Below, one piece after another: positions 1,238-32,135 of a stretch of DNA of 64,000 nt. A model generated the notes under the pieces. That model did not search any database and was not told the DNA's origin. It was given only the letters and a program-made list of their open reading frames with translations. This stretch comes from Candidatus Geocrenenecus huangii. GTDB taxonomy: Archaea; Thermoproteota; Nitrososphaeria_A; Caldarchaeales; Wolframiiraptoraceae. The stretch spans positions 19,538 through 83,537 of the forward strand of contig JALNLM010000002.1 in the NCBI GenBank assembly GCA_023254095.1, given 5' to 3'. A program made the translations under genes and the position numbers. The stretch's first letter is position 1, and each line of letters opens with the position of its first letter.

Positions 1238-3093
1238 TTGAAGCTAGGTCTCCTTGACAATAGCTTTGGGAGGCTAAGAGGTTTGAAAGGTTTTCCTTCA
1301 TTATGCTTCTTTACTTCTTCGATTAACTTTTCTAACTTCATGTACTCTATCCTCCCTGATTCTCTAATCCTTACGGCTAGTTCTCCTCTTTCCTTTTCTC
1401 TATCTCCATAGACTACCACATACGGTATCCATTCAGTCTCAGCATCTTTGATCTTCTTATCAACTGTTTCCTCCCTATCATCTAGGTCGACTCTAATCTT
1501 TTCTCCTTCGATCCTGCTCATGAGATTTAAGCAATCTTCTAAATGCCTTTCAGCAACAGGTATTAATCTAACCTGCGTTGGGGAAAGCCATACTGGAAGC
1601 ATCGGTTTACCTCCTTTTTCCATAGTCATATATGCTTTCTCGAGTAATGCATAGATTACTCTTTCTATTGCACCGCTTGGAGAACAATGAAGGATGATAG
1701 GATGTTTCCTGGCTCCGTCTTCATCTACATAGGTTATACCATATTGTTTAGCATTCTCGATATCTATCTGGTCCGTGGATAGGGCTGCGGCCTTCTTCTG
1801 GCTGTCGATGAAGTTGAACTCCCACTTCAATATGAAGTAGAAGAATCTTTCCTCCCACATCTCGGCGAGGACAGGCTTCCCAAAAGTTCTCACCATGTCA
1901 TAGATGAAATCCTTGTTTTCTTCATAAAATTCTTTTGTAAATCTTATAGCCATCTCTACATCGTCTCGGGTTAAACCGATTCCCTCAAGTACTTCGAGAC
2001 TTAGCTTAAGCCTCTTCTTCATTTCTCTCTTAGCTTGTTCTACATCTTTTACAAATGCATGGACGTCAGGCATCGTGAATGCTCTAAGTCTTCTAAGCCC
2101 TGCTAACTCTCCACTTTTCTCCCTCCTAAAGCTATATCTGGTTAGCTCATAGAGCCAGAAAGGTAGATGACGATATGATAAAACCATGTCGCTCGCCATC
2201 AAGAATTGGCCGAAACATGCTGCGAACCTTAAGAAATATTCTTTATCCTCTGTTTTGATAACGTATTGCCTTGCAGGAAATCTATGTAGATATTTTTCGA
2301 GGCTTGGATGATGCATATCATACATTATCGGGGTCTCAACCTCCACGCCGCCATAATCGATAACCTTGGATGTAACGTATTGTTCAAGCAGAGATTTTAT
2401 CAATCTACCTTTAGCGGGCCACCGCATATTCCCTGGATCACTTCCATTCTCATAATCTGCTATCTCAAGCTTCTTCATTAACTGGACGTGTGGAGGCTGC
2501 TCCAAAACGGCCCTAGATTTAGCGATCTCATATCGTGTTAAGAATTCAAGGTTGCTGCGACCTGTAAAGTCGAACTGCTCCACCGGGATCATCCGACCCT
2601 CTGGAGTAAGGATAAACCAGTAGGACCTCAATTTTTCCTCCATCAGTAATGCTTTCGATACGGGTTCTTCTTTTGACCCCTCTCGGGCTCCATAACTCTT
2701 CAACTGCTCAGCTAGTGGATGACCTTTAACTGCAATAACCAAACGTTTATTCCAGCCGAATGGAGCATAATGTACTTCTATGTTGTTTGACGATGCTTCA
2801 GTCCTAATCTTATTTAGTATGCCTAATGCTTTATGTGGTGGAGCGAGCTCAGTGCTTAGATGAGCATACGGGTATATGACTAGCCTTCTTATCTTCATCC
2901 TATTCATGAATTCAAGAGAGTCCCTAACAACCTCGCTTGCCAAATCCACGACGTCATCTTTCTCCACGCATACAAGAAGTAGGAGAGCATCATCTACTCT
3001 ATATGCCTTTTTTTCCACCTCTTCATAGACTGAGCTCTCCACCTGGATTGGCTCATACTCGACAAGATCAACATGTAGTTGAAGTACTTTCAA
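1234..3093 (-). CDS. thrS: Threonyl-tRNA synthetase, archaeal type with N-terminal editing domain
   Basis: 619 aa. It has class II aaRS core motifs (FTMPDVHAF, RAFTMPD), a C-terminal anticodon-binding domain and the archaeal-type N-terminal editing domain. Length and domain order match archaeal ThrRS. Confidence 0.9.
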   Translation of the reverse strand: MKVLQLHVDLVEYEPIQVESSVYEEVEKKAYRVDDALLLLVCVEKDDVVDLASEVVRDSLEFMNRMKIRRLVIYPYAHLSTELAPPHKALGILNKIRTEASSNNIEVHYAPFGWNKRLVIAVKGHPLAEQLKSYGAREGSKEEPVSKALLMEEKLRSYWFILTPEGRMIPVEQFDFTGRSNLEFLTRYEIAKSRAVLEQPPHVQLMKKLEIADYENGSDPGNMRWPAKGRLIKSLLEQYVTSKVIDYGGVEVETPIMYDMHHPSLEKYLHRFPARQYVIKTEDKEYFLRFAACFGQFLMASDMVLSYRHLPFWLYELTRYSFRREKSGELAGLRRLRAFTMPDVHAFVKDVEQAKREMKKRLKLSLEVLEGIGLTRDDVEMAIRFTKEFYEENKDFIYDMVRTFGKPVLAEMWEERFFYFILKWEFNFIDSQKKAAALSTDQIDIENAKQYGITYVDEDGARKHPIILHCSPSGAIERVIYALLEKAYMTMEKGGKPMLPVWLSPTQVRLIPVAERHLEDCLNLMSRIEGEKIRVDLDDREETVDKKIKDAETEWIPYVVVYGDREKERGELAVRIRESGRIEYMKLEKLIEEVKKHNEGKPFKPLSLPKLLSRRPSFK

Positions 3094-3235
3094 GACTTTA
3101 CACCTGCGTTAAGATTTTTCAGAGACTACTTTAACCTTTCTCAAAATCTCCAATCTACAGATTCTCTAAAAACCTTTTCTACGGATGCTTCTCCCTTAAT
3201 AAATAATAATAAGCAAATGAAAGCATATTCAAAAG

Positions 3236-4810
3236 ATGAAAAGAGATAGACTGATCCCTAAGACAATGGCCTCTCAACATCCTGATAATGCTTCTATACC
3301 GAAGTGGTGTAAGAACGAGGTTATAGCTGGGGAAGATGAAGTCTACGAAGCATATCATGCCTACGTTTTCCTAGGGTGTAGAGAAGCTATGTGGGACGCT
3401 GAGGGCAAAGACATAGACCCGCAAGTAGTTAGAAAACTCTTAACAAATTATCCCGAGTACTTCATTGAGAATAAACTAGGAGAAGATATATTCTTAACTC
3501 TTAGAATTCCTAACCCATTAATAGAAGTAGCTGAGAAGAAGATATTCTTGGAGACTCTTCAATCTATACCTAAACATAATGATGTTGCAATGACCTTCTA
3601 CAACGAGCATCCCCGTAAATCTATCTTCGAAGTAATCCTGCCTTTTACAGTAAGCCATGTTGACCTAATTAGAGTTAGGGAGACATATAGGAAAGTCATC
3701 GTTGAACCATTTAATGAACAGATAGACTACCAAGGATTAAAATTGAAAGAACTGGTAGGAGAAGTTTATCCAAAAGAAATAGAAGTTATACCGTTGATTG
3801 AGGATATGAACTCCCTGATATCATGTGACGAAATAATAATGAGATATATAGAGCTTGTCTCACCAAGCTATCTTAGAGTTTTCCTAGCGAGGTCTGACCC
3901 TGCATTAAACTATGGATATGTGGCCGCCACGCTCCTCGCAAAATTAGCTTTATCAAAGCTCTGGAATATTAGAAACCAGACAGGCATAGACATATACCCT
4001 ATAATCGGGGCAGGATGCTTACCGTTCAGAGGCCATAACTCTCCCATAAACATCGAGGGGTTCGTTGAAGAATATAAGGGAACATGGACTGTTACGATTC
4101 AGTCTGCATACAGATATGATTACCCTGAGAATGAAGTCGTAGAGGCTGTAAAGAAATTGAACAACATGCTACCATACGGTGAGCCTAGAGACCTTACTGA
4201 AGTCGAAGAAACCATTGTTAACGTCATTCAGAAATTTTCACGAAAATATCAGGAGACTCTCGAATCAGCCATAGACGCTGTAAATTATGTGGCGTCTTTC
4301 ATCCCACCTCGCAGGAGTAGAAAGCTACACATCGGGTTATATGGATACTCAAGGAGATTGATAGGAAAATCTCTTCCCCGTGCAATTCCATTTACTGGAG
4401 CATTCTACTCTCTCGGGATCCCCCCAGAATTCATAGGCATGAGAGTATTGAAGGGTCTAGGTGAAGAAGAATATGATGTTCTTAGAGAAGTTCATGTAAG
4501 ATTGAGAGATGACCTAGAAGAAGCAGCTAGAAGAGTTGTATGGGAAGCATTTTCTCTCCTTGTAGAAAATAGAGGAAATCTTCTCAAACACTTCTCTAAA
4601 GAGTTCTATGAAGAGTTTATTCCCTCATACATGGAAGACTTAGAAACGACCTCGGAGTTATTTGGGATAAAGATAGGTGGAAGGAGCTTCTCAGATAGAA
4701 GATACGCTAACATTATAGAGAACTTCTTGATCTCGATTTTAGAAGAAGAATACGATAGAGCTAAGCATGAACTAGTTGAAGCAGCAAGACTTCGGAGATC
4801 CATAGGATAG
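3236..4810 (+). CDS. ppcA: Archaeal-type phosphoenolpyruvate carboxylase (atPEPC)
   Basis: 524 aa. The N-terminus ...IPKTMASQHPDN... carries the hallmark archaeal PEPC motif (TMxTQHPDN). The length of about 510-520 aa is typical of atPEPC rather than bacterial PEPC. Confidence 0.85.
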   Translation: MKRDRLIPKTMASQHPDNASIPKWCKNEVIAGEDEVYEAYHAYVFLGCREAMWDAEGKDIDPQVVRKLLTNYPEYFIENKLGEDIFLTLRIPNPLIEVAEKKIFLETLQSIPKHNDVAMTFYNEHPRKSIFEVILPFTVSHVDLIRVRETYRKVIVEPFNEQIDYQGLKLKELVGEVYPKEIEVIPLIEDMNSLISCDEIIMRYIELVSPSYLRVFLARSDPALNYGYVAATLLAKLALSKLWNIRNQTGIDIYPIIGAGCLPFRGHNSPINIEGFVEEYKGTWTVTIQSAYRYDYPENEVVEAVKKLNNMLPYGEPRDLTEVEETIVNVIQKFSRKYQETLESAIDAVNYVASFIPPRRSRKLHIGLYGYSRRLIGKSLPRAIPFTGAFYSLGIPPEFIGMRVLKGLGEEEYDVLREVHVRLRDDLEEAARRVVWEAFSLLVENRGNLLKHFSKEFYEEFIPSYMEDLETTSELFGIKIGGRSFSDRRYANIIENFLISILEEEYDRAKHELVEAARLRRSIG

Positions 4811-4844
4811 CCGAAGATTTTCAAACACCTATTAAACGAATGTA

Positions 4845-4978
4845 CGCCGGGGGTGGGATTTGAACCCACGAGCCCCGTTTCCCCAATAATTAATGGGGCA
4901 TCGGCTAACTCTTCTCAGTCTGACCATGCTTATTATTGATCTCGAGGCCGACCCTCTACCTGGCTAAGGTACCCCGGC
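4845..4978 (-). tRNA. tRNA-Ser (anticodon CGA) with two introns: about 34 nt in the anticodon loop and a probable 14-nt mini-intron in the variable arm
   Basis: Read by hand on the minus strand: acceptor GCCGGGG/CCCCGGC with discriminator G; D-arm; anticodon stem UCGGC/GCCGA with loop CUCGAG|A; T-arm GUGGG-UUCAAAU-CCCAC. The gene is 134 nt against about 86 nt expected for mature tRNA-Ser. Removing AUCAAUAAUAAGCAUGGUCAGACUGAGAAGAGUU at position 37/38 and AUUAAUUAUUGGGG from the variable arm leaves a canonical Ser variable arm, UGCCCCAAACGGGGCUC. Confidence 0.7.
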
Positions 4979-5023
4979 TCGATGTATATCTCCATCTGGA
5001 GCTATTTATCTTTAAGAAGACGA

Positions 5024-5623
5024 TTATATTCTTGCTGCAAACTCTTCTACGCCTGGATACACTTGTCCGAAGAATTGAATTAACGTATACTCTAATGCAG
5101 CGGCGGCTAATAATAGTATCGCAGTCCCTGCAATTGATATTATCAACCATCTCGACTCTATTCTAGTCTTCTTCTTGAATATGCTGTAAGTAAACAATAT
5201 GCTTTCTGTGAATGCTGTCCCATACGCTAAGAATTCTATCAATCCATAGATTGTTATAATGGTTAAGGATATTAGGAGTATGGGGGGAAAACCTGTGGAG
5301 ACCGATAAGGCTCCTAATAATCTCCCAGTGGTAAAGATTATGTAGCCTCCGACGATCGGTCCAGCTACGGGGATTAACATTATCAATGAGATCAGGAAAT
5401 TGTTTAAGAAGATGTCTATGATTGTAAAGCGTTGTTTAAAGATTTCTTCTGCCTCCTTCATCAATAAATCGGCTTCTTCACTCGATAAAGGTATCGTTGA
5501 TGCAATGTATAAAAGAGAATACAAGGTGAAAGTAAAAATCAATACTATTATAACTCTCTTCTTTACGTCTACTATGCCTGCCGAGACGATCCATCTATAT
5601 CTTTCCAAGTCTCTCATCAACAT
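5024..5623 (-). CDS. Integral membrane protein, possibly SpoIIM/DUF95-like
   Basis: 199 aa with about 5-6 predicted hydrophobic helices. Its start overlaps the 3' end of the upstream PGI/PMI gene by 29 nt. Confidence 0.45.
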   Translation of the reverse strand: MLMRDLERYRWIVSAGIVDVKKRVIIVLIFTFTLYSLLYIASTIPLSSEEADLLMKEAEEIFKQRFTIIDIFLNNFLISLIMLIPVAGPIVGGYIIFTTGRLLGALSVSTGFPPILLISLTIITIYGLIEFLAYGTAFTESILFTYSIFKKKTRIESRWLIISIAGTAILLLAAAALEYTLIQFFGQVYPGVEEFAARI

Positions 5624-6677
5624 TCTTCAATATTTCTTGATAGTTTCTATTGTTATCCTTCAATTTAGGGATTACATAAAGAGCCAGTGGGTCAACATTC
5701 CTAAGTATAGCAGCATATAAGCTAATATAATCGACTAAGATAAGTAGAGAAAGTATCTCACTCAAAAAATTTCCAGCTGTAACTTTCAACTCGATATAGT
5801 TTTCTCTGAGGAAGCTCGAAAGAGCTCTATATGCCTCGTCAATCTCATTCGGTTCATTAGAAAGTCTCGGAGCCAGAAGGACCGTTTTCTCATTAAGTAT
5901 TTCAACATCATTATGGAAAGCTTCAGGGACTTCACAGAAGTGTGAAAAAATCTTACTATTCTCGTTTAACTGGCATTTCAGACGATATGCTATCGGAACC
6001 GCTTTACCATACCCATACACTATTGGAAGCATACCAACTATTTTGGAAGCAGATTTCTTTGCCAGGTTCTTAGCTGTAGGAGTTTCAGGAACAAAATTCT
6101 CTTTAATCTTCCCGGTCTCTACAATACTTCCCGACAGAGTCTCAATTTTTATACCTAGAGATTGAATCAATCCAAGAAGGGCTCCTAGAGTATGTGGGAA
6201 AGCATATCTAGGCGGGATACCAGGTTCTAGGATAATTGAAGGAAAATTCATTTTCTCAGCTAGCTTTCTTAATCTTCCATCTGAAGTGATCATGATCATT
6301 CTACGATTTAGTTCTAGATTTTTTAGGAGCGTTGGAAATATCTCTGCAGTATCCCCTGAATAGCTGACGGCTATTATCAAGTCATCTGGATTAGATCTAA
6401 AAACCATGTAATCTCTGTGAACTATCACTGGAACCTCTTCGGTTATAATATTGATGAAGTCTCCTGCAATCGCTGATCCACCAATGCCTAGGTAAACTAT
6501 TCTAGATGGTATGAAATCCTTTATCTTCTCTCCGACTTCCAACCCTAAATGATAGTATTTGGAAAAACATTCAAGATATCTATCAACGATAGAGAAAGCT
6601 TTCATGTATGGTTCTCTGCGGTATACTTCACTATTATCCAGTAGATTATGGTAGTCTTCACTTCTCATACCCATCAA
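5595..6677 (-). CDS. Bifunctional phosphoglucose/phosphomannose isomerase (SIS-domain PGI/PMI)
   Basis: 360 aa. SIS-domain signatures include VYLGIGGSAIAGD and a second SIS half. Size and architecture match the archaeal bifunctional PGI/PMI family. The true start may be the internal M in ...MKAFSIVDRY.... Confidence 0.65.
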   Translation of the reverse strand: MMGMRSEDYHNLLDNSEVYRREPYMKAFSIVDRYLECFSKYYHLGLEVGEKIKDFIPSRIVYLGIGGSAIAGDFINIITEEVPVIVHRDYMVFRSNPDDLIIAVSYSGDTAEIFPTLLKNLELNRRMIMITSDGRLRKLAEKMNFPSIILEPGIPPRYAFPHTLGALLGLIQSLGIKIETLSGSIVETGKIKENFVPETPTAKNLAKKSASKIVGMLPIVYGYGKAVPIAYRLKCQLNENSKIFSHFCEVPEAFHNDVEILNEKTVLLAPRLSNEPNEIDEAYRALSSFLRENYIELKVTAGNFLSEILSLLILVDYISLYAAILRNVDPLALYVIPKLKDNNRNYQEILKNVDERLGKI

Positions 6678-6919
6678 CTAATGTGTTCAAGATTATCCTG
6701 ATTTTCCTATTTTTAAATATATGCTGAGCAGGTTAAAAGGCGAGCATATAAATAGGCTCTTAAATAATTTAATGCTTTTTCTACTCGGTTTTTACTCGAA
6801 GTATATAGCACCCGAATATTCTATTATTTATTGTTTTTGATTTTATGCTATTTTAGTTTAAGTTCATTTTCAGTAAGGTGTTAATCCATAAAGCCTACAA
6901 TCTACTTGATTAACTTGAA

Positions 6920-7351
6920 ATGAAGTCGCAGAATCTGGAGAAGACTATAGAAGAATTAAGACATAGAGTAGAAACACTTGAACTTGCTCTGGACACCATT
7001 TTGAAGAAGATGCCTGAGATCAGGATAAATGTTGAGGTTCCGAGAATAGTTCTAGAAAAGAAGCCGATACACATAAAAATAAAGGCGAGCGAGCTTCATG
7101 GGAGAATAATGCTTCTTGCTATGGAAGGTTTCTTAGACGATTGGAAAACAGCGGGAGACATCGCCTCCGAGCTTGTGAGAAGAGGTTGGGCACCTAAGGA
7201 CTTCAAGCATGTAAGACCAGTACTAGAACATCTTGTATCTCTAGGTTTAATAGAGAGGATTAGGTCTTCGAAGAAGAAAAGAGGAAGAAAGGCTAAGTGG
7301 CTGTATAGAGCTATGGAGGACTTGTCACAGAAAGTAGAACTGACTCAATAA
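6920..7351 (+). CDS. Hypothetical protein with N-terminal coiled coil and C-terminal winged-helix-like basic domain
   Basis: 143 aa. MKSQNLEKTIEELRHRVETLELALDTILKK is a heptad-like segment. The C-terminus VLEHLVSLGLIERIRSSKKKRGRKAKWLYRA resembles a wHTH followed by a basic tail. It is preceded by a 240-nt AT-rich intergenic region. Confidence 0.4.
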   Translation: MKSQNLEKTIEELRHRVETLELALDTILKKMPEIRINVEVPRIVLEKKPIHIKIKASELHGRIMLLAMEGFLDDWKTAGDIASELVRRGWAPKDFKHVRPVLEHLVSLGLIERIRSSKKKRGRKAKWLYRAMEDLSQKVELTQ

Positions 7352-25839: not shown

Positions 25840-27600
25840 TTAGCTTCTTACTGCACTCTTTCCAGCGAGGTATCCGAAAGTCACGGCTCTACTATGGCTA
25901 AGACCTGGAATTACAACAAGCGAATAATATTGGGCATAGAAGCCTCCTGCAGCATTCCCTGCAGCATATAATCCTGGGATGGGTTTACCCTCTTTATCCA
26001 GAACTTGTAGCCCTTTATTTACTTTTAATCCTCCGCCAACCATGTTTAGGAGTACTGCTATACCTTGAATAGCATAAAATGGAGGATTCTCAATAGGTGC
26101 CATGTATCTAGATGGTTTACCGAAATCTTCATCAACTCCTTTCTTACATAACTCGTTATATCTTTCAATCGTCTTCTTGAAGGTTTCTATAGGAACTCCC
26201 ATCTTCTCTGCAAGTTCTTCTATCGTGTTAGCCGTTACTGCTGCTCCATTATTCAATGCACCCTGTAGAAACTCTTTACCCAGCTCTGGATCAGTTATTC
26301 TTCGATAACCACCACCATGTTTAGTAACTTGCTCCTCCCACTTAGAGTCGAATATCGCCCAATACATAGCTTTAGGTTGTTGTAAAACTCTGTTAATAGT
26401 CCACATCCACGGAAGCGCCTCATTTGTGAATCGCTCTCCTAAAGTGTTTACGAATAAGAAGGGGTTGCATATAAGCATGTATCCTTTACCGGGACCTAAA
26501 CCGGCAAGTGAACTTATAGCGAATCCTACGTCACCCCCAGTCATTATGTAACAGAGTGGGCAGTGTGGTGGTTCATCTAGGGCAGCGCCTATCCATAAGC
26601 CCATTAACTGTCCGTCTCCCGTATTAGTTGGAGTAATCATTGGGTAGATTATTCTATTGGGTATATCTGCTAATCTTGCGACTTCAGGTGGAGCCCAAAG
26701 CTTCAGGAGGTCCTTATTTGACGAATAGTCTCCTGTACAGAGAATCACTGCCTTATTTGAAGTAAATTTTATGTATCTACCGTTAGCGTCTTGCGCGACA
26801 ACCCCCGTAACCTTACCGTTCTCTCGGATAAGTTGAACAGCCCTAGTATTGTAATAGAATTTTGCTCCTTTATCTTTAGCTAGTTTCTCCAATACTGGTG
26901 CGAGCTGAGCTACACCGTCAAAATCTGTTTCATCACTGAATTTATAGGTTGGCCTAGGCCATTCTCTCCATTCATCCTCGAGATATGTTTTAGGCTTTAG
27001 TACTTGAGCTGGAATACCATTTGCTCTCGCAAGGTCAGCGATAAAGTCTGCGATTCTTGAGGAATTAGCTAACCACAACCTAACAAGCGATTCATCAACT
27101 TTATTGCCTGAGATTACATCGATCTGCTCACGGATGGCTTTCTCGTAGTCTACAGATATTCCCGCCTCTTTGAAGAGCTTGCCGGCTGGACCAGGATTTA
27201 TGTGGGCTCCTCTGACATTGGGTCCTTTGTGCTTTTCTATAACAACAGTATTAGCTCCTTCTTCAGCGGCCGAGTATGCGGCCATCAGTCCAGCTAGACC
27301 AGCACCAACGACTACGATGTCGGCAGTAATTTTTTCAGCTATTTTTTCATCAGGTATTGGCAGTGGAGGAGTAAGTATTGCAGGTTCACCTGCAACTGTA
27401 ACTGTTGATGTTTGAGTTACAGTAGTTGGTTTAGTAACCGTTGTTGTCTCAACTTTTGTCTCTGTTATCTTTATTTCTTTCGGAAATACTTGGCTACCAA
27501 TTATTCCACCAACGACAAGTCCTGCAACGCCCGTTGCAGTCGCGGATAAGAAACTCCTACGTGAGACTTTTGCACCTTTTTCGGGAGCTTGTGCACTCAT
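25840..27600 (-). CDS. Exported FAD-dependent oxidoreductase (FAD_binding_2; fumarate-reductase/KstD-like flavoprotein) with Tat-type signal anchor and Thr/Pro-rich stalk
   Basis: 586 aa. The N-terminus KVSRRSFLSATATGVAGLVVGGIIG is a twin-arginine motif followed by a hydrophobic helix. Residues about 45-85 are Thr/Pro-rich (TTVTKPTTVTQTSTVTVAGEPAILTPPLPIPDE). ADIVVVGAGLAGLMAAYSAAEEG is the FAD dinucleotide-binding motif. The C-terminal GLYAAGNAAGG is typical of FAD_binding_2 reductases. Confidence 0.8.
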   Translation of the reverse strand: MSAQAPEKGAKVSRRSFLSATATGVAGLVVGGIIGSQVFPKEIKITETKVETTTVTKPTTVTQTSTVTVAGEPAILTPPLPIPDEKIAEKITADIVVVGAGLAGLMAAYSAAEEGANTVVIEKHKGPNVRGAHINPGPAGKLFKEAGISVDYEKAIREQIDVISGNKVDESLVRLWLANSSRIADFIADLARANGIPAQVLKPKTYLEDEWREWPRPTYKFSDETDFDGVAQLAPVLEKLAKDKGAKFYYNTRAVQLIRENGKVTGVVAQDANGRYIKFTSNKAVILCTGDYSSNKDLLKLWAPPEVARLADIPNRIIYPMITPTNTGDGQLMGLWIGAALDEPPHCPLCYIMTGGDVGFAISSLAGLGPGKGYMLICNPFLFVNTLGERFTNEALPWMWTINRVLQQPKAMYWAIFDSKWEEQVTKHGGGYRRITDPELGKEFLQGALNNGAAVTANTIEELAEKMGVPIETFKKTIERYNELCKKGVDEDFGKPSRYMAPIENPPFYAIQGIAVLLNMVGGGLKVNKGLQVLDKEGKPIPGLYAAGNAAGGFYAQYYSLVVIPGLSHSRAVTFGYLAGKSAVRS

Positions 27601-27885: not shown

Positions 27886-29676
27886 TTATTTTTCTCTTGA
27901 AGCGTTTTTTCCCGCTATGTATCCTGTCGTCCAAGCCATACTATGACTTAGCCCTGGACATATAAGTGGATAATCTAATCCAAACCTTCTTCCAACGAGG
28001 TTTCCGGTAACATATAAGCCGGGTATCGCTTTTCCATCTTTATCCACCGGTTGTAGGTTTTCATTTGTGATTAGCCCGCCCATTGTAACTAGGAATGCTG
28101 CTTGAGGAGGGTTCCAGTTTGCGTAAAAAGGCTTCGTGTCCACGGGAAACAAGTAATCCGATCTCTTACCGAAATCCTCGTCTACTCCTTTCCTACATAG
28201 TTCATTGTATCTTTCGACTGTTTTCTTGAATATTGCAACGTCTAATTCCGGAGTAATTCCCCTCATTTTTTCTGCAAGTTCATCAATAGTATTTGCTTCT
28301 ATTATCTGTCCTGACTCTATCTTCTCCTGGAATTCTTTCAATGTTATATCGTCGGCTTTCCAAATTCTGAAAAATCCTGGCCCTAAGTTATATGTATACT
28401 TTGGCCAATTTGAATCGAAAACAACCCATATGCCTCCATTCCTCAAACATTGTATTGGAAATGCTAGAACATTCGAGATTAAGTCCTCGTTGGCGAATCT
28501 TTTACCAAATTTATCGATCATTAAAAATGGGGCGGTCCCCATTGCATGCCAAGCATGAACCATTGCACAATGTGGTCTCGGCTCAATCTGTGCACCTATC
28601 CAATAGGCCATTAAATGCCCATCACCGGTAGGCGAGGGCAATCCAAAGATGCTTCTTAAGTCTGGTAACTTAGCAAATTCCTCAGGTAAGAAATACTCCA
28701 CCATTGCTCGGTTACCTCCATAGTCCCCTGTTGAAAGTATTATGGCCCTTCTAGCCCTAAATCTTATGTATTTTCCATCTTTTGTCTGAGCTATTACTGC
28801 TTTAACCCCTCCATTGTCAGGTCTTTCAAGCCTTAATGCATTCGTCTCATACCTTATCTCTACCCCCAGATCTCTTGCTTTCTTTTCCAGAATTGAGAGT
28901 AGTAAACCCTGATTCGCTGTTGGTGTATCCCCAAATCTATGACATGTTGGATATTCTATATATGTCTGCTTTCTGTAGTCCCATCCAGGTGGAGCCTCAG
29001 TGGGAGGCCACTTATCAACCACGAAAGTGTATTTATCTGTTCTATCCGGAATAACCAGCCAAGTCTTCACGCCCTCCTTTTCACATATATCTATGAGCCA
29101 ATCCATTACCTTGCCAGAATTATAAGCCCATAATCTGATTATTCTTTCGTCAGCTCTATAACCTGAAATTTCCATTAGCTTTTTAATGACTTCCTCAGGC
29201 TCAATATAAATGCCTAGTTGTTTATGTTTCTTGCTATTTAAAGCTGTGTTGTCGCCACCACGTGCAGAAAAAGTAGACTCACGTTCAAGCAAAACTACCT
29301 CTACTCCTTCCTCAGCAGCCGCGACTGCTGCAGCTAATCCAGATGTACCAGCACCGACTATTACTACATCATATTCTAGAGTTTGCGCTATCTGTTCGTC
29401 TGGGATAGGTGGTGGAGGAATTAAGAAGATCGGTTCAGGCGATATAATTGTTGTAGTAGTTGATACTTGAGTTAAAGTAGTGGGTTTGGTTATAGTACTT
29501 GTTTCAGTTTTCGTTTCTGTGGTTCTTACTTCTTTAGGGAAAGCTTGACTACCAATTATTCCCCCTAAGATTAAACCGATTATGCCTGAGGAGATTGATG
29601 CAACAACACTTCTCCTACTAATTTTACCAGTCTCTTCACTCATGATTTCAGAGACCTCAAACTTATTATCTGACAC
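27886..29676 (-). CDS. Exported FAD-dependent oxidoreductase, paralog of 25840..27600 (same Tat-anchor, Thr/Pro-stalk and FAD_binding_2 architecture)
   Basis: 596 aa. KISRRSVVASISSGIIGLILGGIIG is the RR motif plus TM helix. The Thr/Pro-rich linker is TETKTETSTITKPTTLTQVSTTTTIISPEPIFLIPPPPIPDE. YDVVIVGAGTSGLAAAVAAAEEG is the FAD motif, and the C-terminus has GLYVTGNLVGRRFG. It is co-linear with the upstream paralog but clearly diverged. Confidence 0.8.
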   Translation of the reverse strand: MSDNKFEVSEIMSEETGKISRRSVVASISSGIIGLILGGIIGSQAFPKEVRTTETKTETSTITKPTTLTQVSTTTTIISPEPIFLIPPPPIPDEQIAQTLEYDVVIVGAGTSGLAAAVAAAEEGVEVVLLERESTFSARGGDNTALNSKKHKQLGIYIEPEEVIKKLMEISGYRADERIIRLWAYNSGKVMDWLIDICEKEGVKTWLVIPDRTDKYTFVVDKWPPTEAPPGWDYRKQTYIEYPTCHRFGDTPTANQGLLLSILEKKARDLGVEIRYETNALRLERPDNGGVKAVIAQTKDGKYIRFRARRAIILSTGDYGGNRAMVEYFLPEEFAKLPDLRSIFGLPSPTGDGHLMAYWIGAQIEPRPHCAMVHAWHAMGTAPFLMIDKFGKRFANEDLISNVLAFPIQCLRNGGIWVVFDSNWPKYTYNLGPGFFRIWKADDITLKEFQEKIESGQIIEANTIDELAEKMRGITPELDVAIFKKTVERYNELCRKGVDEDFGKRSDYLFPVDTKPFYANWNPPQAAFLVTMGGLITNENLQPVDKDGKAIPGLYVTGNLVGRRFGLDYPLICPGLSHSMAWTTGYIAGKNASREK

Positions 29677-29790
29677 TGGAAATTTTAGCGTTTGGTCAGT
29701 AGAATGTATACCCTTAATACTTAGGTTGTAAAGAATATCTATACTTAGGATGGATAAGGCTAATATTTTAACGATAGATAAACCTCTCTG

Positions 29791-31245
29791 ATGTTTAGGA
29801 AGAATCTTGTCCAGCGATGGGATACTCTTGATAGAATTTCACACCTGATAAATTTATCCGGTATACTTATAGCAATAATTTCTGGTCTTCCTCAATTAAA
29901 TCTTACTTTATTCGGATTTAATTTAGGAGCACAGTTCAGATGGATAACAGACGTAATCGGTGGAGAGGGAGTACGACGAATACTACACAGGTACGTCGTT
30001 ACAGGCTTAATTAGCTTAGCATTTACAGTTCACGTTTTCGGGTTTGGTTTGAAGAAGAAAAAATCTCATATATTATTCACATTCAGAGATTTAAAGGACC
30101 TCGTAGCGTATTACGGACATAAATTCTTTAGGAAGGCTAAGCCTGTTCTCGGGTTTCATGTCCCTGGAGAGAAGCTGCTGTATTGGGTTGCACTAATATG
30201 CCTATTCATTCTCGGCTCTACGGGTATAATAATGTGGACAAGGTTTCTCTATATTGACTACAACTTGCTTAGACTATTTCACAGGATTGCTTCTATTATC
30301 TTGTCGTTATTTGTCTTGGTACATTTCATATTGAACATAATCTTGCCAGAACAGCGTTCAGCAATGAGAGCTATGTTCATTAACGGTAAAGTGCCAGAAG
30401 AATGGGTTAAACAGCACCATCCGAAAATGTTCGAGGAGGAAGAGCAAACATTGTTGACAAGACGTAGAATGATAAAGACGTTTCTCTGGCTTATCCCTGC
30501 AATAGGTTTTTCCTATCTCTTTTCAGAATTACTACAAAAACCACAATGTCGGATAGGAGATATAATAGTAGAACCCCCTAAAGTCATGGTTGGTAAACCA
30601 TTCGTAATATCTGTGGAAGTAACGAATATGGGTTACAGGGAAAGCTCATTTCCAATTCAATTATCAGTAGATGGTAAGATAGTAGCAGAGAAAAATATTG
30701 CTCTACTCGATGGTGAAACAAATCTGATCAATTTCAAGACAACCATCAACGAAATAGGCCGACATACAATAGAAGTAAATGGTGTCTCAAAGATGATCGA
30801 AGTAGTAGAGGCGCCTCCACCAATCGAGAAAGAGTTAGCAGATAAATTCAAAGAACTATTTCCAACAGCATACGATTTTGTCCCGGTTGTGAAAGACGGC
30901 AAAATAGTATATTATGAAATATATGATGCTGAAGGAATGCTAATAGGCTATGGTTTCCATGAAAGAGTATACGCTCCAACGGATAGACTTACCGTGACAG
31001 GAATTATTGACCTAGATTACAAGGTCAGGATGATAGATGTCGAGAAATTAAAACCGGACATTCATGTTCTGAATGATAAGATATTAGATCCCGATTTTGA
31101 AAATCAATTTATAGGTTTAACCATTGAGGAAATGAGGTTGTCTCCTGAAGGAAAGATCGACGCAGTTTCTGGAGCAACGATATCATCGACTCTGATAGTA
31201 GAAACTATAAGAAAAATACTTGAAGAAGTTCAATCGCCTTCGTAA
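29791..31245 (+). CDS. Fusion protein: N-terminal diheme b-type cytochrome (Ni_hydr_CYTB/FdnI-like, 4-5 TM), then CARDB-like Ig-fold domain, then C-terminal FMN-binding domain with covalent-flavinylation motif
   Basis: 484 aa. TM helices carry paired His spaced 13-14 residues apart (HRYVVTGLISLAFTVHVFGF; HRIASIILSLFVLVHFILN) plus His in TM1. The middle region IIVEPPKVMVGKPFVISVEVTNMGYRESSFPIQLSVDGKIVAEKNIALLDGETNLINFKTTINEIGRHTIEV is a CARDB-type fold. The C-terminal ...KIDAVSGATISSTLIVETI matches the FMN_bind D(x)xSGAT flavinylation motif, with the Thr codon at 31177-31179. Confidence 0.75.
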   Translation: MFRKNLVQRWDTLDRISHLINLSGILIAIISGLPQLNLTLFGFNLGAQFRWITDVIGGEGVRRILHRYVVTGLISLAFTVHVFGFGLKKKKSHILFTFRDLKDLVAYYGHKFFRKAKPVLGFHVPGEKLLYWVALICLFILGSTGIIMWTRFLYIDYNLLRLFHRIASIILSLFVLVHFILNIILPEQRSAMRAMFINGKVPEEWVKQHHPKMFEEEEQTLLTRRRMIKTFLWLIPAIGFSYLFSELLQKPQCRIGDIIVEPPKVMVGKPFVISVEVTNMGYRESSFPIQLSVDGKIVAEKNIALLDGETNLINFKTTINEIGRHTIEVNGVSKMIEVVEAPPPIEKELADKFKELFPTAYDFVPVVKDGKIVYYEIYDAEGMLIGYGFHERVYAPTDRLTVTGIIDLDYKVRMIDVEKLKPDIHVLNDKILDPDFENQFIGLTIEEMRLSPEGKIDAVSGATISSTLIVETIRKILEEVQSPS

Positions 31246-32135
31246 ATTCGAAAATTTCTAGTTTTTATTATGTCTCTATTATTTGTGATTATCATTGCCT
31301 CCGCTTCTCCTAATTCTTCAATGAGGTGAATGCTCTCAGATGGATTCATGGCGCATAAGCTGGTGGCGAGAGCATCAGCTATTAAGGCTCTCTCCGTAAT
31401 TACTGTGGCGCTAACCACCTGACTACTCAGTGAATTCTTTAGGTAAGGATTTAAAATATGAGAAAAGTTCCCACTCCCTATTCTACGTTCATAGTTTCCA
31501 CTTGTTGCTACAGAAGAACTATATATCATTAACTTACAGATACTCTTATCTTTCTCAAATGGATTTCTAATAGCTATCCTCCAGGGTTCTCCATCTGTTT
31601 TCTCACCTACTGCTTTCAGGTCTCCTCCGGCATTAATCAACGCGTGCTTAACTCCATGTTTTATTAAATATTCCGATGCCAAATCAACGGCATATCCTTT
31701 AGCTACGCTATTTAAGACGATCTTCATGCCTTTCTTTAAGAATCTTATGCTCTTCCCACTGATCTCGATGAGTGAATAATCGACTAACTCTAGAATTCTT
31801 TCTAATTCTTCCTCATCCAGTTCTCCACGTTTTCTAACGATGTATTCTATTAATGGTAGTATAGTTACATCGTATACTCCTCTAGTTAATTTGCTTATCC
31901 TGATAGCCTCTTTCAAGATATAGATTAATTCATCACTTGCGTGTTCTAGGAATCCTTCCTTATTTAATTTGTTAACTTCACTTTCTTCATCATATATGCT
32001 CATAATTCTTTCTATACGCTTTAATTCGCTAAATGCTTCATCTATTATCCTTTTAGCATATCCTATATCTTCGTGAACTAAGGTTATTGTAACGATGGTG
32101 CCCATTGAAAACGTAGACTTTCTGATGCTGAACAT
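31230..32135 (-). CDS. apbE: ApbE-family FAD:protein FMN transferase (flavin transferase)
   Basis: 301 aa. FSMGTIVTITL is the ApbE N-terminal MGT motif. NSVAKGYAVDLASEYLIKHGVKHALINAGGD, PWRIAIRNPFE and ATSGNYERRIGSGNFSHILNPY align with the conserved ApbE FAD-binding and catalytic blocks. It overlaps the 3' end of the cytochrome-b/FMN_bind fusion gene by 16 nt (convergent). Confidence 0.85.
   Translation of the reverse strand: MFSIRKSTFSMGTIVTITLVHEDIGYAKRIIDEAFSELKRIERIMSIYDEESEVNKLNKEGFLEHASDELIYILKEAIRISKLTRGVYDVTILPLIEYIVRKRGELDEEELERILELVDYSLIEISGKSIRFLKKGMKIVLNSVAKGYAVDLASEYLIKHGVKHALINAGGDLKAVGEKTDGEPWRIAIRNPFEKDKSICKLMIYSSSVATSGNYERRIGSGNFSHILNPYLKNSLSSQVVSATVITERALIADALATSLCAMNPSESIHLIEELGEAEAMIITNNRDIIKTRNFRIYEGD

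Follow-up and report, generated by a model that had tools for sequence, protein, structure and literature searches.

The gene at 29791..31245 on the forward strand of the window (the whole 64-kb stretch of DNA that was analysed) encodes a 484-residue protein in which a dihaem cytochrome b, a CARDB domain and an FMN-binding domain are joined in one chain. This protein probably anchors an extracytoplasmic flavoenzyme system in the membrane of hot-spring Caldarchaeales (Aigarchaeota) and conducts electrons for it. The fusion had been proposed in an earlier, sequence-only reading of this DNA, and it is confirmed: the open reading frame runs from ATG to TAA, profiles and folds identify the three domains, and nine independent loci beyond the window carry the fusion as a single ORF with 54-73% identity. 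These loci come from different assemblies, which rules out an assembly, gene-fusion or frameshift artefact. The weak points that the earlier reading had named for itself (histidines lost in homologs, an insignificant FMN_bind score, homologs split into separate genes) were not found.

Fusion gene, a gene for the flavin transferase ApbE and at least one gene for a FAD_binding_2 flavoenzyme occur together in the window and in loci L001, L002 and L004-L010. The full fusion was detected in 4 species among 185,579 by a contig scan that used FMN-domain patterns only. A profile search of 1.84 billion representatives, whose matches are dominated by CARDB-repeat proteins, gave one full-length representative (P0010) among the 150 matches listed. 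Nothing relevant was found in the literature on Aigarchaeota and Tat, or on the fusion system. Conservation figures refer to a 16-sequence alignment.

The cytochrome b and flavin-binding domains

Residues 1-222 (29791..30456, + strand) make up an FdnI-type dihaem cytochrome b domain, recognised by profiles and in a structure model. Ni_hydr_CYTB (PF01292) matches residues 9-196 (E=3e-13; 50.4 bits with a Pfam cut-off of 30.1), and the NCBIfam profile for the formate dehydrogenase gamma subunit matches residues 7-218 (E=8e-17). The scores fall below the FdnI equivalog cut-offs (61.9 against 115.85 for TIGR01583, 48.7 against 339 for NF007558), and no molybdopterin or FeS subunit of the FdnG/FdnH type is encoded in the fusion gene cluster. 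Judged by these profiles, the cytochrome part is a member of the PF01292/FdnI-HyaC family, but not FdnI proper (the gamma subunit of formate dehydrogenase-N). Ferric_reduct (PF01794; 17.5, cut-off 28) and DUF4405 (PF14358; 20.1, cut-off 26.7) both match only residues 130-198. The predicted model has the fold of a four-helix bundle, with transmembrane (TM) helices at residues 12-35, 59-87, 127-150 and 157-184 and an amphipathic cytoplasmic helix at 98-113.

By homology to FdnI, the predicted haem ligands are H18, H66, H164 and H178, one in TM1, one in TM2 and two in TM4. H18 (29842..29844, +) lies in a conserved DRxxH stretch and is kept in every aligned sequence that covers it; it is equated with FdnI H18 by residue number within the profile match at 7-218, the printed alignment starting at residue 49. 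H66 (29986..29988, +) corresponds to FdnI H57, with RILHRY and RILHPF aligned. The TM4 segment from H164 to H178 (30280..30324, +) aligns to 1kqf_C so that H164 (codon 30280-30282) equals FdnI H155 and H178 (codon 30322-30324) equals FdnI H169, with the same spacing of 14 residues. H66, H164 and H178 are near-invariant, and the conservation of four ligands that the sequence-only reading called for holds in the 16-sequence alignment. That reading had assigned the domain to diheme cytochromes b of FdnI/HyaC type. The family stands, but the stretch HRYVVTGLISLAFTVHVFGF (H66...H81) is not an FdnI ligand pair, and a scheme of two bis-His helices (H66/H81 and H164/H178) was dropped because the FdnI alignment gives another ligand pattern. 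H81 is an additional conserved histidine that is absent from FdnI. One b haem would then be held by H18 and H178 on the cytoplasmic side, the other by H66 and H164 on the outer side.

A loop between G121 and W132 (30151..30186, +), with the sequence GFH(V/M)PGEKLLYW, is nearly invariant and aligns with FdnI 107-GKYNAGQKMMFW. This segment of FdnI (N110, G112, Q113) we take to be the menaquinone/HQNO site of the FdnGHI structure. The fusion retains a modified FdnI quinone-site loop, placed on the cytoplasmic side.

Five TM helices are present in the predicted model, with the N-terminus inside and the C-terminus outside, so the earlier claim that the chain continues outside after its last TM helix is upheld. 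Lys/Arg-rich segments (the N-terminus, residues 87-128 and residues 186-229) fit the positive-inside rule and an FdnI-like N-in orientation. With a pTM of 0.45 the inter-domain geometry of the model is unreliable, and the proximity of haem to FMN cannot be derived from it.

Outside the membrane the first domain is a probable spacer, a CARDB Ig-like beta-sandwich at residues 253-339 (30547..30807, +). The CARDB profile (PF07705) gives 21.8 bits for residues 258-330, just under the Pfam cut-off of 22.7; the Ig-like fold is seen in the predicted model. The FMN-binding domain follows at residues 347-481 (30829..31233, +). Its FMN_bind match (PF04205, residues 426-478) is marginal at 23.8 bits, barely over the Pfam cut-off of 22, and the score on which the sequence-only reading had staked this domain is backed by the NCBIfam profile RnfG_Methano (NF041840, residues 351-482, E=3.5e-20). 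The C-terminal half has no significant sequence match in the PDB, so a fold search was needed; it returned the RnfG/NqrC fold. Against the RnfG equivalog the fusion scores 72.4 (cut-off 230), and no Rnf or Nqr genes occur in the neighbourhoods of the window and the related loci. By sequence and fold the domain appears to be of RnfG/NqrC type, but not subunit G of an Rnf complex.

ApbE recognises the motif D-x-x-[S/T]-G-A-[S/T] (PMC12052999). In the fusion this is D457-A-V-S-G-A-T463 (31159..31179, +), of which D457, A458, G461, A462 and T463 are invariant in 16 of 16 sequences. T463, 21 residues from the C-terminus, has the codon ACG at 31177-31179 within GKIDAVSGATISS. The Thr codon already singled out as the predicted flavinylation site is thus part of a full, invariant motif, and an ApbE gene is adjacent.

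Gene neighbourhood and electron path

The ApbE gene (31230..32135, - strand; 301 aa, without a signal peptide; PF02424, E=1.9e-69, matching from residue 11) overlaps the fusion gene tail-to-tail by 16 bp. The two genes are neighbours not only in the window but in each of the nine related loci. On the other side two FAD_binding_2 flavoenzymes are encoded on the - strand, each with a twin-arginine (RR) anchor and a Thr-rich linker. Flavoenzyme 1 (27886..29676, 596 aa, anchor KISRRSVV) is divergent from the fusion gene; flavoenzyme 2 (25840..27600) has 586 aa and the anchor VSRRSFL. Flavoenzyme 1 and the fusion are separated by 114 bp of divergent intergenic DNA (29677..29790), which contains an A+T-rich ctaatatttta about 30 bp before the fusion ATG, as read from the sequence, and may be a promoter region.

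One or two RR-anchored FAD_binding_2 enzymes, lacking an FMN_bind domain of their own, are found beside the fusion in every locus. In the two encoded in the window, the His and Arg residues that bind fumarate are missing. An attempt to assign a substrate to these enzymes failed: they stand at about the same distance from fumarate and urocanate reductases, KstD, TcuA and vinylphenol reductase.

Standalone relatives, with an RR anchor, CARDB and FMN_bind, point to the role of the cytochrome. For example, in L003 such a protein is encoded after DmsB (with a Tat signal) and DmsC and before a fumarate-reductase-like gene, and in L088 it follows a pair similar to DmsB and DmsC. Another, in L012, occurs with a Fer4/CCG membrane module and a signal-less ApbE. 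Since the standalone relatives are paired with DmsBC- or Fer4/CCG-type modules, the cytochrome b appears to fill the slot of the quinone-pool module.

Electrons could accordingly be passed from quinol to the inner haem b, the outer haem b and the covalent FMN, and from there to the FAD of the neighbouring Tat-exported FAD_binding_2 enzymes, which would dock on the FMN domain and reduce a soluble acceptor. The FdnI-type cytochrome b (residues 1-222) would be the membrane haem module and the fifth helix would bring the chain across the membrane; beyond it, a rigid CARDB domain followed by a PPPI linker would hold the RnfG-like domain, with FMN borne on T463 by a phosphoester linkage. The outward, reductase direction is favoured only modestly. 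Quinol, the donor named in the sequence-only reading, is plausible; the outward direction given there is less secure, because the retained loop matches the cytoplasmic-side site at which FdnI reduces quinone.

Flow in the opposite direction is possible, though on the unlikely side. The FAD_binding_2 enzymes would then be dehydrogenases, and electrons would move from FAD through FMN, outer haem and inner haem to quinone in a proton-motive redox loop of FdnI style. The cytochrome b is closest to FdnI, which uses the equivalent loop to reduce quinone, and it keeps both the loop position and a KVxxxWxxxHHPK tail. For the flavoenzymes, matches to KstD-type dehydrogenases and TcuA are about as good as those to reductases, and the missing fumarate reductase substrate residues in the window's two enzymes point the same way. 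However, the characterised extracytoplasmic FMN_bind and PF00890 enzymes named in PMC8238504 are respiratory reductases. Among the standalone relatives, the partners are modules of DmsBC type and reductase-like enzymes of HHTMGG type, and the relatives of the host are described as anaerobes (two of the host genera belong to a family so described; PMC9246946).

Flavinylation, export and topology

The sequence-only reading had not noted that ApbE lacks a signal peptide here, which alters the view of how the fusion protein must be assembled. In all 11 clade loci a stop codon ends the ApbE frame at most 17 codons ahead of the first conserved strand, too close for a signal peptide to fit in between; in the window the frame has a stop two codons before the ATG. 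In about 38 other loci, curated by hand, ApbE has a Sec/lipobox or Tat signal and the FMN_bind targets have no RR. Signal-less ApbE co-occurs only with RR-anchored targets, a correlation that draws on perhaps two independent lineages. RR and signal status were set by eye for the window and for L004-L006, L014, L016-L019, L061, L082 and L085.

In the fusion, the alignment places a twin-arginine motif, T223-R-R-R-M-I-K229 (30457..30477, +), directly before TM5. R224 and R225 are invariant (16/16) in the pattern T/S/G-R-R-x-x-[IL]-K. The standalone relatives have SRRSFL, SRRGFL or SRRNFL at the equivalent place, and 8 of 10 close FMN_bind cluster representatives have the canonical motif. TM5 itself (residues 226-248 of the predicted model; 30466..30534, +) is proposed to be a Tat-inserted signal-anchor helix. 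Its insertion free energy is about +3.3 kcal/mol, compared with -1.6 for TM4, both approximate values from a simple scale without position terms. All members have K or R among the roughly 10 residues that follow TM5. An RR before the last helix, an odd number of helices, a weakly hydrophobic TM5 and trailing K/R agree with the criteria of Tooke et al. 2017 (PMC5449189).

Taken together, these features suggest that insertion involves both Sec and Tat. TM1-4 would be inserted by Sec/YidC, and the signal-less ApbE would attach FMN in the cytoplasm. The holo-domain, already folded, would then be exported by Tat, the RR motif and the weakly hydrophobic TM5 together acting as its internal signal anchor. 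We lean slightly towards this reading as a whole, in which cytoplasmic flavinylation precedes folded export, the proteins represent a further, flavin-bearing family inserted by Sec (TM1-4) and Tat (TM5), and an FdnI-type cytochrome b constitutes an additional, archaeal class of conduit that surveys based on signal peptides have probably missed.

A conventional biogenesis is unlikely. TM5 would in that case be inserted by Sec/YidC, FMN being added either outside, by an ApbE that gets there with no classical signal, or to the C-terminal tail while it is still unfolded and has yet to pass Sec, and the RR would be only a positive-inside signal. Positive residues preceding a TM helix are common topology signals. 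T463 lies near the C-terminus, and ApbE is able to modify short tags, e.g., one of seven residues (PMC12052999). Neither TatA nor TatC turned up in the 64 kb of the window or in any fetched locus: a regex/TM scan, with Pfam on five membrane ORFs, gave TauE, an ABC-3 permease, a rhomboid, SpoIIM (weak, below cut-off) and ZnuA, and tblastn with E. coli TatC (an approximate query sequence) gave no match in the window or loci. Against all this, adjacent arginines are strictly conserved, the motifs of the standalone relatives are textbook examples, signal-less ApbE accompanies RR-anchored targets exclusively, and the low hydrophobicity of TM5 with its trailing K/R is that of Tat-dependent final helices.

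Once exported, the FMN domain would most likely be the link to the neighbouring flavoenzymes rather than to the cell surface, where the sequence-only reading had placed the end of the wire. That placement gives way because FAD_binding_2 enzymes adjoin the fusion gene in every locus, RR-anchored and without an FMN_bind domain. A stand-alone conduit from quinol to the surface, serving extracellular electron transfer to minerals, iron or flavin shuttles in the manner of Listeria PplA, is quite improbable. A predicted outward-facing covalent FMN on a spacer domain would suit it, and bacteria do use flavinylated proteins to move electrons out of the cell and to reduce iron (PMC8238504). In the window and the nine loci, however, the fusion stands beside one or two RR-anchored FAD enzymes that lack an electron-input domain. 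No iron transporter, multihaem cytochrome or multi-FMN protein is found in the neighbourhood, and one FMN on one Ig domain would seem too short for an archaeal S-layer. An inverted topology, in which the N-terminus is external and the FMN domain stays in the cytoplasm, to be modified there by ApbE and to exchange electrons with cytoplasmic partners, can hardly be correct: the cytoplasmic ApbE speaks for it, but the Lys/Arg-rich segments follow the positive-inside rule for N-in, and the partner flavoenzymes and standalone relatives have RR anchors and Thr-rich linkers typical of exported archaeal proteins.

Comparison with known systems

Most catalogued covalent-flavin conduits are bacterial, and the catalogues worked on the assumption that ApbE and its targets are secreted first and the flavin is attached afterwards. 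The flavinylation surveys (PMC8238504, PMC11334425) excluded components for which no signal peptide was predicted. The present locus suggests that an FdnI-type cytochrome b can be the membrane module, a further class that would extend the scheme to archaea. With the flavin domain on the anchor and not on the reductase, the fusion may act as a common socket into which different Tat-exported flavoenzymes can plug. Flavinylation before export would need Tat and a rare hand-over from Sec to Tat within one polypeptide. If this is true, surveys filtered by signal peptides undercount such systems, especially archaeal ones, and the fusion would be a compact, thermostable transmembrane wire from haem to flavin with possible engineering use. 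Knowing what the flavoenzymes act on could bring to light new respiratory acceptors or donors in hot-spring Caldarchaeales.

FdnI, the cytochrome b556 gamma subunit of E. coli formate dehydrogenase-N (1KQF/1KQG chain C, PF01292), is the nearest cytochrome relative. The fusion differs in lacking FdnH and FdnG partners and in adding a fifth helix and 260 extracytoplasmic residues. Its quinone loop reads HVPGEK where FdnI has YNAGQK, and it has the extra conserved H81.

MsrQ-like, PepSY-like and DUF4405 dihaem cytochromes are known as flavinylation-linked transmembrane modules with a proposed role in electron transfer to extracytosolic redox partners, and a single protein combining MsrQ and an FMN-binding domain has already been modelled (PMC8238504, PMC11334425). 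They share with the fusion a dihaem b linked, sometimes in one polypeptide, to an ApbE-flavinylated domain, with apbE clustered. The earlier suggestion that a wire from haem b to covalent FMN is undescribed was therefore too broad; among the papers covered here, a fusion of PF01292/FdnI type is the one version that is absent. Unlike the MsrQ-like and DUF4405 proteins, the fusion belongs to another cytochrome family, PF01292 being over its cut-off and PF01794 and PF14358 under theirs. In contrast to all of these modules, its cytochrome has four TM helices rather than six and an input of quinone type rather than NAD(P)H type, and the system is archaeal, with an ApbE that lacks a signal peptide.

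Proteins of the Sco3746 type, inserted by both Sec and Tat, include a five-TM protein with dihaem b and a molybdenum cofactor (MoCo) (Tooke et al. 2017, PMC5449189). Five TM helices, a membrane dihaem b, an RR before a weak TM5 and a cofactor domain outside are common to these proteins and the fusion. Their exported domain is a molybdenum-cofactor, polyferredoxin or Rieske domain, and their membrane part is not FdnI-like; neither FMN nor flavin is mentioned in PMC5449189. RnfG and NqrC differ in the anchor, which is a plain N-terminal helix and not a five-TM cytochrome with RR.

Listeria FrdA with PplA, Shewanella UrdA and FccA resemble the fusion system in that an external PF00890 enzyme is fed through a quinone-linked, ApbE-flavinylated FMN domain (PMC8238504). 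In those systems FMN_bind (or multihaem c) is inside the reductase and the membrane link comes from a gene located elsewhere, whereas here the FMN domain is carried on the membrane cytochrome and the flavoenzymes have an RR anchor only.

The fusion gene and its conserved residues

The gene at 29791..31245 (+) is intact from ATG to TAA and encodes a protein of 484 aa. The fusion is confirmed, and the three-domain architecture proposed by the sequence-only reading, a cytochrome b followed by CARDB and FMN_bind domains, is borne out by profile matches. In Pfam, Ni_hydr_CYTB matches residues 9-196 above its cut-off (E=3e-13), FMN_bind matches residues 426-478 at 23.8 bits (cut-off 22), and CARDB matches residues 258-330 at 21.8 bits, below its cut-off of 22.7. 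The NCBIfam models for the formate dehydrogenase gamma subunit and RnfG cover residues 7-218 (E=8e-17) and 351-482 (E=3.5e-20). An AlphaFold2 model with the family alignment as input (mean pLDDT 74, pTM 0.45) places four long helices at residues 12-35, 59-87, 127-150 and 157-184, a fifth (TM5) at 226-248, a beta-sandwich at 253-339 and an alpha/beta domain at 347-481.

Alignment with FdnI, the gamma subunit of E. coli formate dehydrogenase-N, pairs H66 with H57, H164 with H155 and H178 with H169. H18, in a conserved DRxxH stretch, corresponds by residue number to FdnI H18, an equivalence that is positional (the printed alignment starts at residue 49) and supported by the NCBIfam match over 7-218. 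Because of these correspondences the haem ligand pairs are predicted to be H18/H178 and H66/H164. Four haem-ligating His, as first proposed, are retained, but not the two bis-His helices that the sequence-only reading implied, from which the FdnI pattern differs. Two further near-invariant His, H81 in TM2 (30031-30033) and H123 in the quinone-site loop (30157-30159), have no FdnI counterpart; the near-invariant HHPK pair H209 and H210 (30415-30420) is common to both proteins, as is the whole KVxxxWxxxHHPK tail. The GFH(V/M)PGEKLLYW loop aligns with the FdnI quinone-site segment containing N110, G112 and Q113, which forms the cytoplasmic-side menaquinone/HQNO pocket in the FdnGHI structure. R224 and R225, directly before TM5, are invariant (16 of 16 aligned sequences). 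The predicted flavinylation site, T463 (codon 31177-31179), is where the sequence-only reading had put it, and DAVSGAT (D457-T463) fits the published ApbE motif D-x-x-[S/T]-G-A-[S/T] (PMC12052999).

Neighbouring genes, distribution and membrane partners

ApbE, the flavin transferase that attaches FMN, is encoded downstream at 31230-32135 (-; PF02424, E=1.9e-69). The convergent 3' ends of the two genes share 16 bp (31230-31245), and related loci L002, L004, L005 and L006 have a tail-to-tail overlap as well. Upstream and divergent from the fusion are two FAD_binding_2 (PF00890) flavoenzymes, at 27886-29676 (-) and 25840-27600 (-). Both start with a twin-arginine (RR) motif (KISRRSVV and VSRRSFL, respectively), which leads through a hydrophobic anchor to a Thr-rich linker; Pfam finds an FMN_bind domain in neither. 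All related loci examined (L001, L002, L004-L010) combine the fusion with ApbE and at least one RR-anchored flavoenzyme. Thermosome and Rpb6-type genes, also neighbours in the window, mark the host as an archaeon, as do the database names given below.

The two flavoenzymes are paralogues, about 42% identical to each other, and both have orthologues with 84-88% identity in L002, L004, L005 and L007. HHTMGG, typical of fumarate and urocanate reductases, is retained in the flavoenzymes of L001 and L003. Where it is expected, the window pair have LNMVGGG and FLVTMGG; the NRxGGN Arg is also missing, so that, unlike Fcc3 and Ifc3, they lack the fumarate-binding His and Arg residues. Because of these differences the substrate probably varies between loci.

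Word-seeded searching across 5.8 billion protein clusters (90% identity) turned up no more than 15 relatives of full length, sharing 53-89% identity. The names on identical or related proteins are 'Nitrososphaerota archaeon', 'Aigarchaeota archaeon', Ca. Geocrenenecus and Ca. Terraquivivens (Caldarchaeales). Among the best 150 matches of 1.84 billion, dominated by CARDB repeats, one representative was full-length. The fusion was found in four of 185,579 species genomes: Aigarchaeota SKYB24, Ca. Geocrenenecus dongiae, Ca. Terraquivivens tengchongensis and a 'Desulfurococcaceae' bin. The contig labelled Desulfurococcaceae archaeon (L010, JAWAJB010000021.1) is almost the same as Terraquivivens, with a fusion gene and an ApbE that match those of Ca. 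Terraquivivens tengchongensis (L009) and L001 nearly exactly, and is probably mis-binned or mislabelled. More distant PF01292 and FMN_bind fusions may exist elsewhere.

The word-seeded search also found a 285-aa relative without the cytochrome part (P0016). In this protein and relatives P0027, P0032 and P0128, a canonical Tat motif (SRRSFL, SRRGFL) leads into an anchor helix, followed by CARDB and FMN_bind. In L003 (1553-4923), a standalone RR/CARDB/FMN_bind gene comes after genes for a DmsB-like ferredoxin with a Tat signal and for the membrane subunit DmsC, and before a fumarate-reductase-like gene. In L088 (508-2915) the DmsB/DmsC positions are taken by a Tat-signal Fer4_11 (DmsB-like) ferredoxin and an unannotated 283-aa protein that matches nothing in Pfam. 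In L012 (Thaumarchaeota, 3091-7279) a Fer4/CCG (HdrD/DsrK-like) membrane module is followed by an RR-anchored Thr-linker FMN_bind protein and ApbE. These contexts suggest that the membrane partner is swapped as a module. Judged by gene order, one putatively exported flavin module is paired with three or more kinds of membrane redox module, two of them (the FdnI-like cytochrome b and DmsC) classic interfaces with the quinone pool.

A proposed route for flavin attachment and export

The assembly route had no place in the sequence-only reading. In the window, the ApbE frame starts 10 residues ahead of the first conserved strand, and an in-frame stop precedes the ATG by two codons. The clade's 11 loci (the window, L001, L002, L004-L010 and L012) all have a stop in the frame at most 17 codons upstream of that strand, too near for a signal peptide to be encoded. 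In about 38 other loci, fetched via FMN-domain patterns and with signals curated by hand, the ApbEs of bacteria and Methanosarcina bear Sec/lipobox signals, ApbEs of Methanocellales and some Methanosarcinales (L013-L020) have their own Tat signal (MINRRKFIKGCAAF...), and the RnfG-like targets throughout have a plain anchor lacking RR. The arrangement is thus reversed, with RR on ApbE in L013-L020 and on the target in the window's clade. The gene call for the ApbE adjoining P0027 (L087, 1063-2151, -) includes 55 extra N-terminal residues that are amphipathic and unlike a signal (…SLPALLKKLREFFAGIIGT…); the true start may be the internal Met.

A textbook twin-arginine motif is present in 8 of 10 close FMN_bind cluster representatives. 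In the fusion, TM5 and TM1 are the least hydrophobic helices (TM5 about +3.3, TM4 -1.6 kcal/mol, by a simple Hessa-type sum), and Lys or Arg occurs within about ten residues after TM5. Low TM5 hydrophobicity and trailing charge govern Sec-to-Tat hand-over in five-TM proteins, including one that combines dihaem b with MoCo (PMC5449189). From the signal-less ApbE, the RR contrast and these TM5 features, we infer that FMN would be attached in the cytoplasm and the holo-domain then exported by Tat, with TM5 as internal signal anchor; the correlation of signal-less ApbE with RR target spans few independent lineages. No Tat genes were found in the window or fetched loci. The flavin domain may instead travel by Sec, since ApbE is able to modify short unfolded tags. 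A flavin domain may also be inserted jointly by Sec and Tat in P0059 (291 aa), a further candidate whose first TM helix is followed by TTRRRFITYLLW with a second helix, then by FMN_bind and lastly by a TM helix at the C-terminus. The hypothesis of cytoplasmic flavinylation followed by Tat export is the most interesting and most testable aspect of this system, and no discussion of a Tat route for flavinylated targets was found in the flavinylation literature searched.

Electron flow and known systems

Through the cytochrome b the external FMN would be connected with the quinone pool, and it would feed, or be fed by, the neighbouring flavoenzymes; the main argument is the pairing of one flavin module with varied membrane modules, two of them quinone-pool interfaces. 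The same varied partners, with the flavoenzymes nearby, indicate an enzyme endpoint and disfavour a free-standing electron route to the cell surface, where the sequence-only reading had ended the wire. Outward flow, in which quinol would supply a respiratory reductase, is rated a little better than even. The characterised extracytoplasmic FMN_bind/PF00890 enzymes that PMC8238504 names are reductases, Wolframiiraptoraceae are reported to be anaerobic (PMC9246946), and the DmsBC pairing of standalone relatives also counts in its favour. Inward flow, with an external dehydrogenase reducing quinone within a redox loop, is a possible but clearly less probable direction. It better fits the FdnI homology, and outward transfer would oppose the membrane potential if quinol is oxidized at an FdnI-type cytoplasmic-side site.

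The claim that a wire from haem b to covalent FMN is novel was too broad, given the known MsrQ-like and PepSY-like (PMC8238504) and DUF4405 (PMC11334425) flavinylation-associated cytochromes. Neither survey refers to PF01292 or to cytochrome b. In the one from 2021 (PMC8238504), proteins lacking a predicted signal peptide were dropped, and only 63 archaeal genomes had extracytosolic components for flavinylation. As a flavinylation-associated transmembrane cytochrome the fusion would resemble these families in function, yet it is not a member of the MsrQ-like or DUF4405 families (PF01794 and PF14358 fall below their cut-offs and match residues 130-198 only). Its cytochrome falls within PF01292 without being FdnI itself, its flavin part is RnfG-like but not an Rnf subunit, and its topology resembles that of Sec/Tat proteins of the Sco3746 type.
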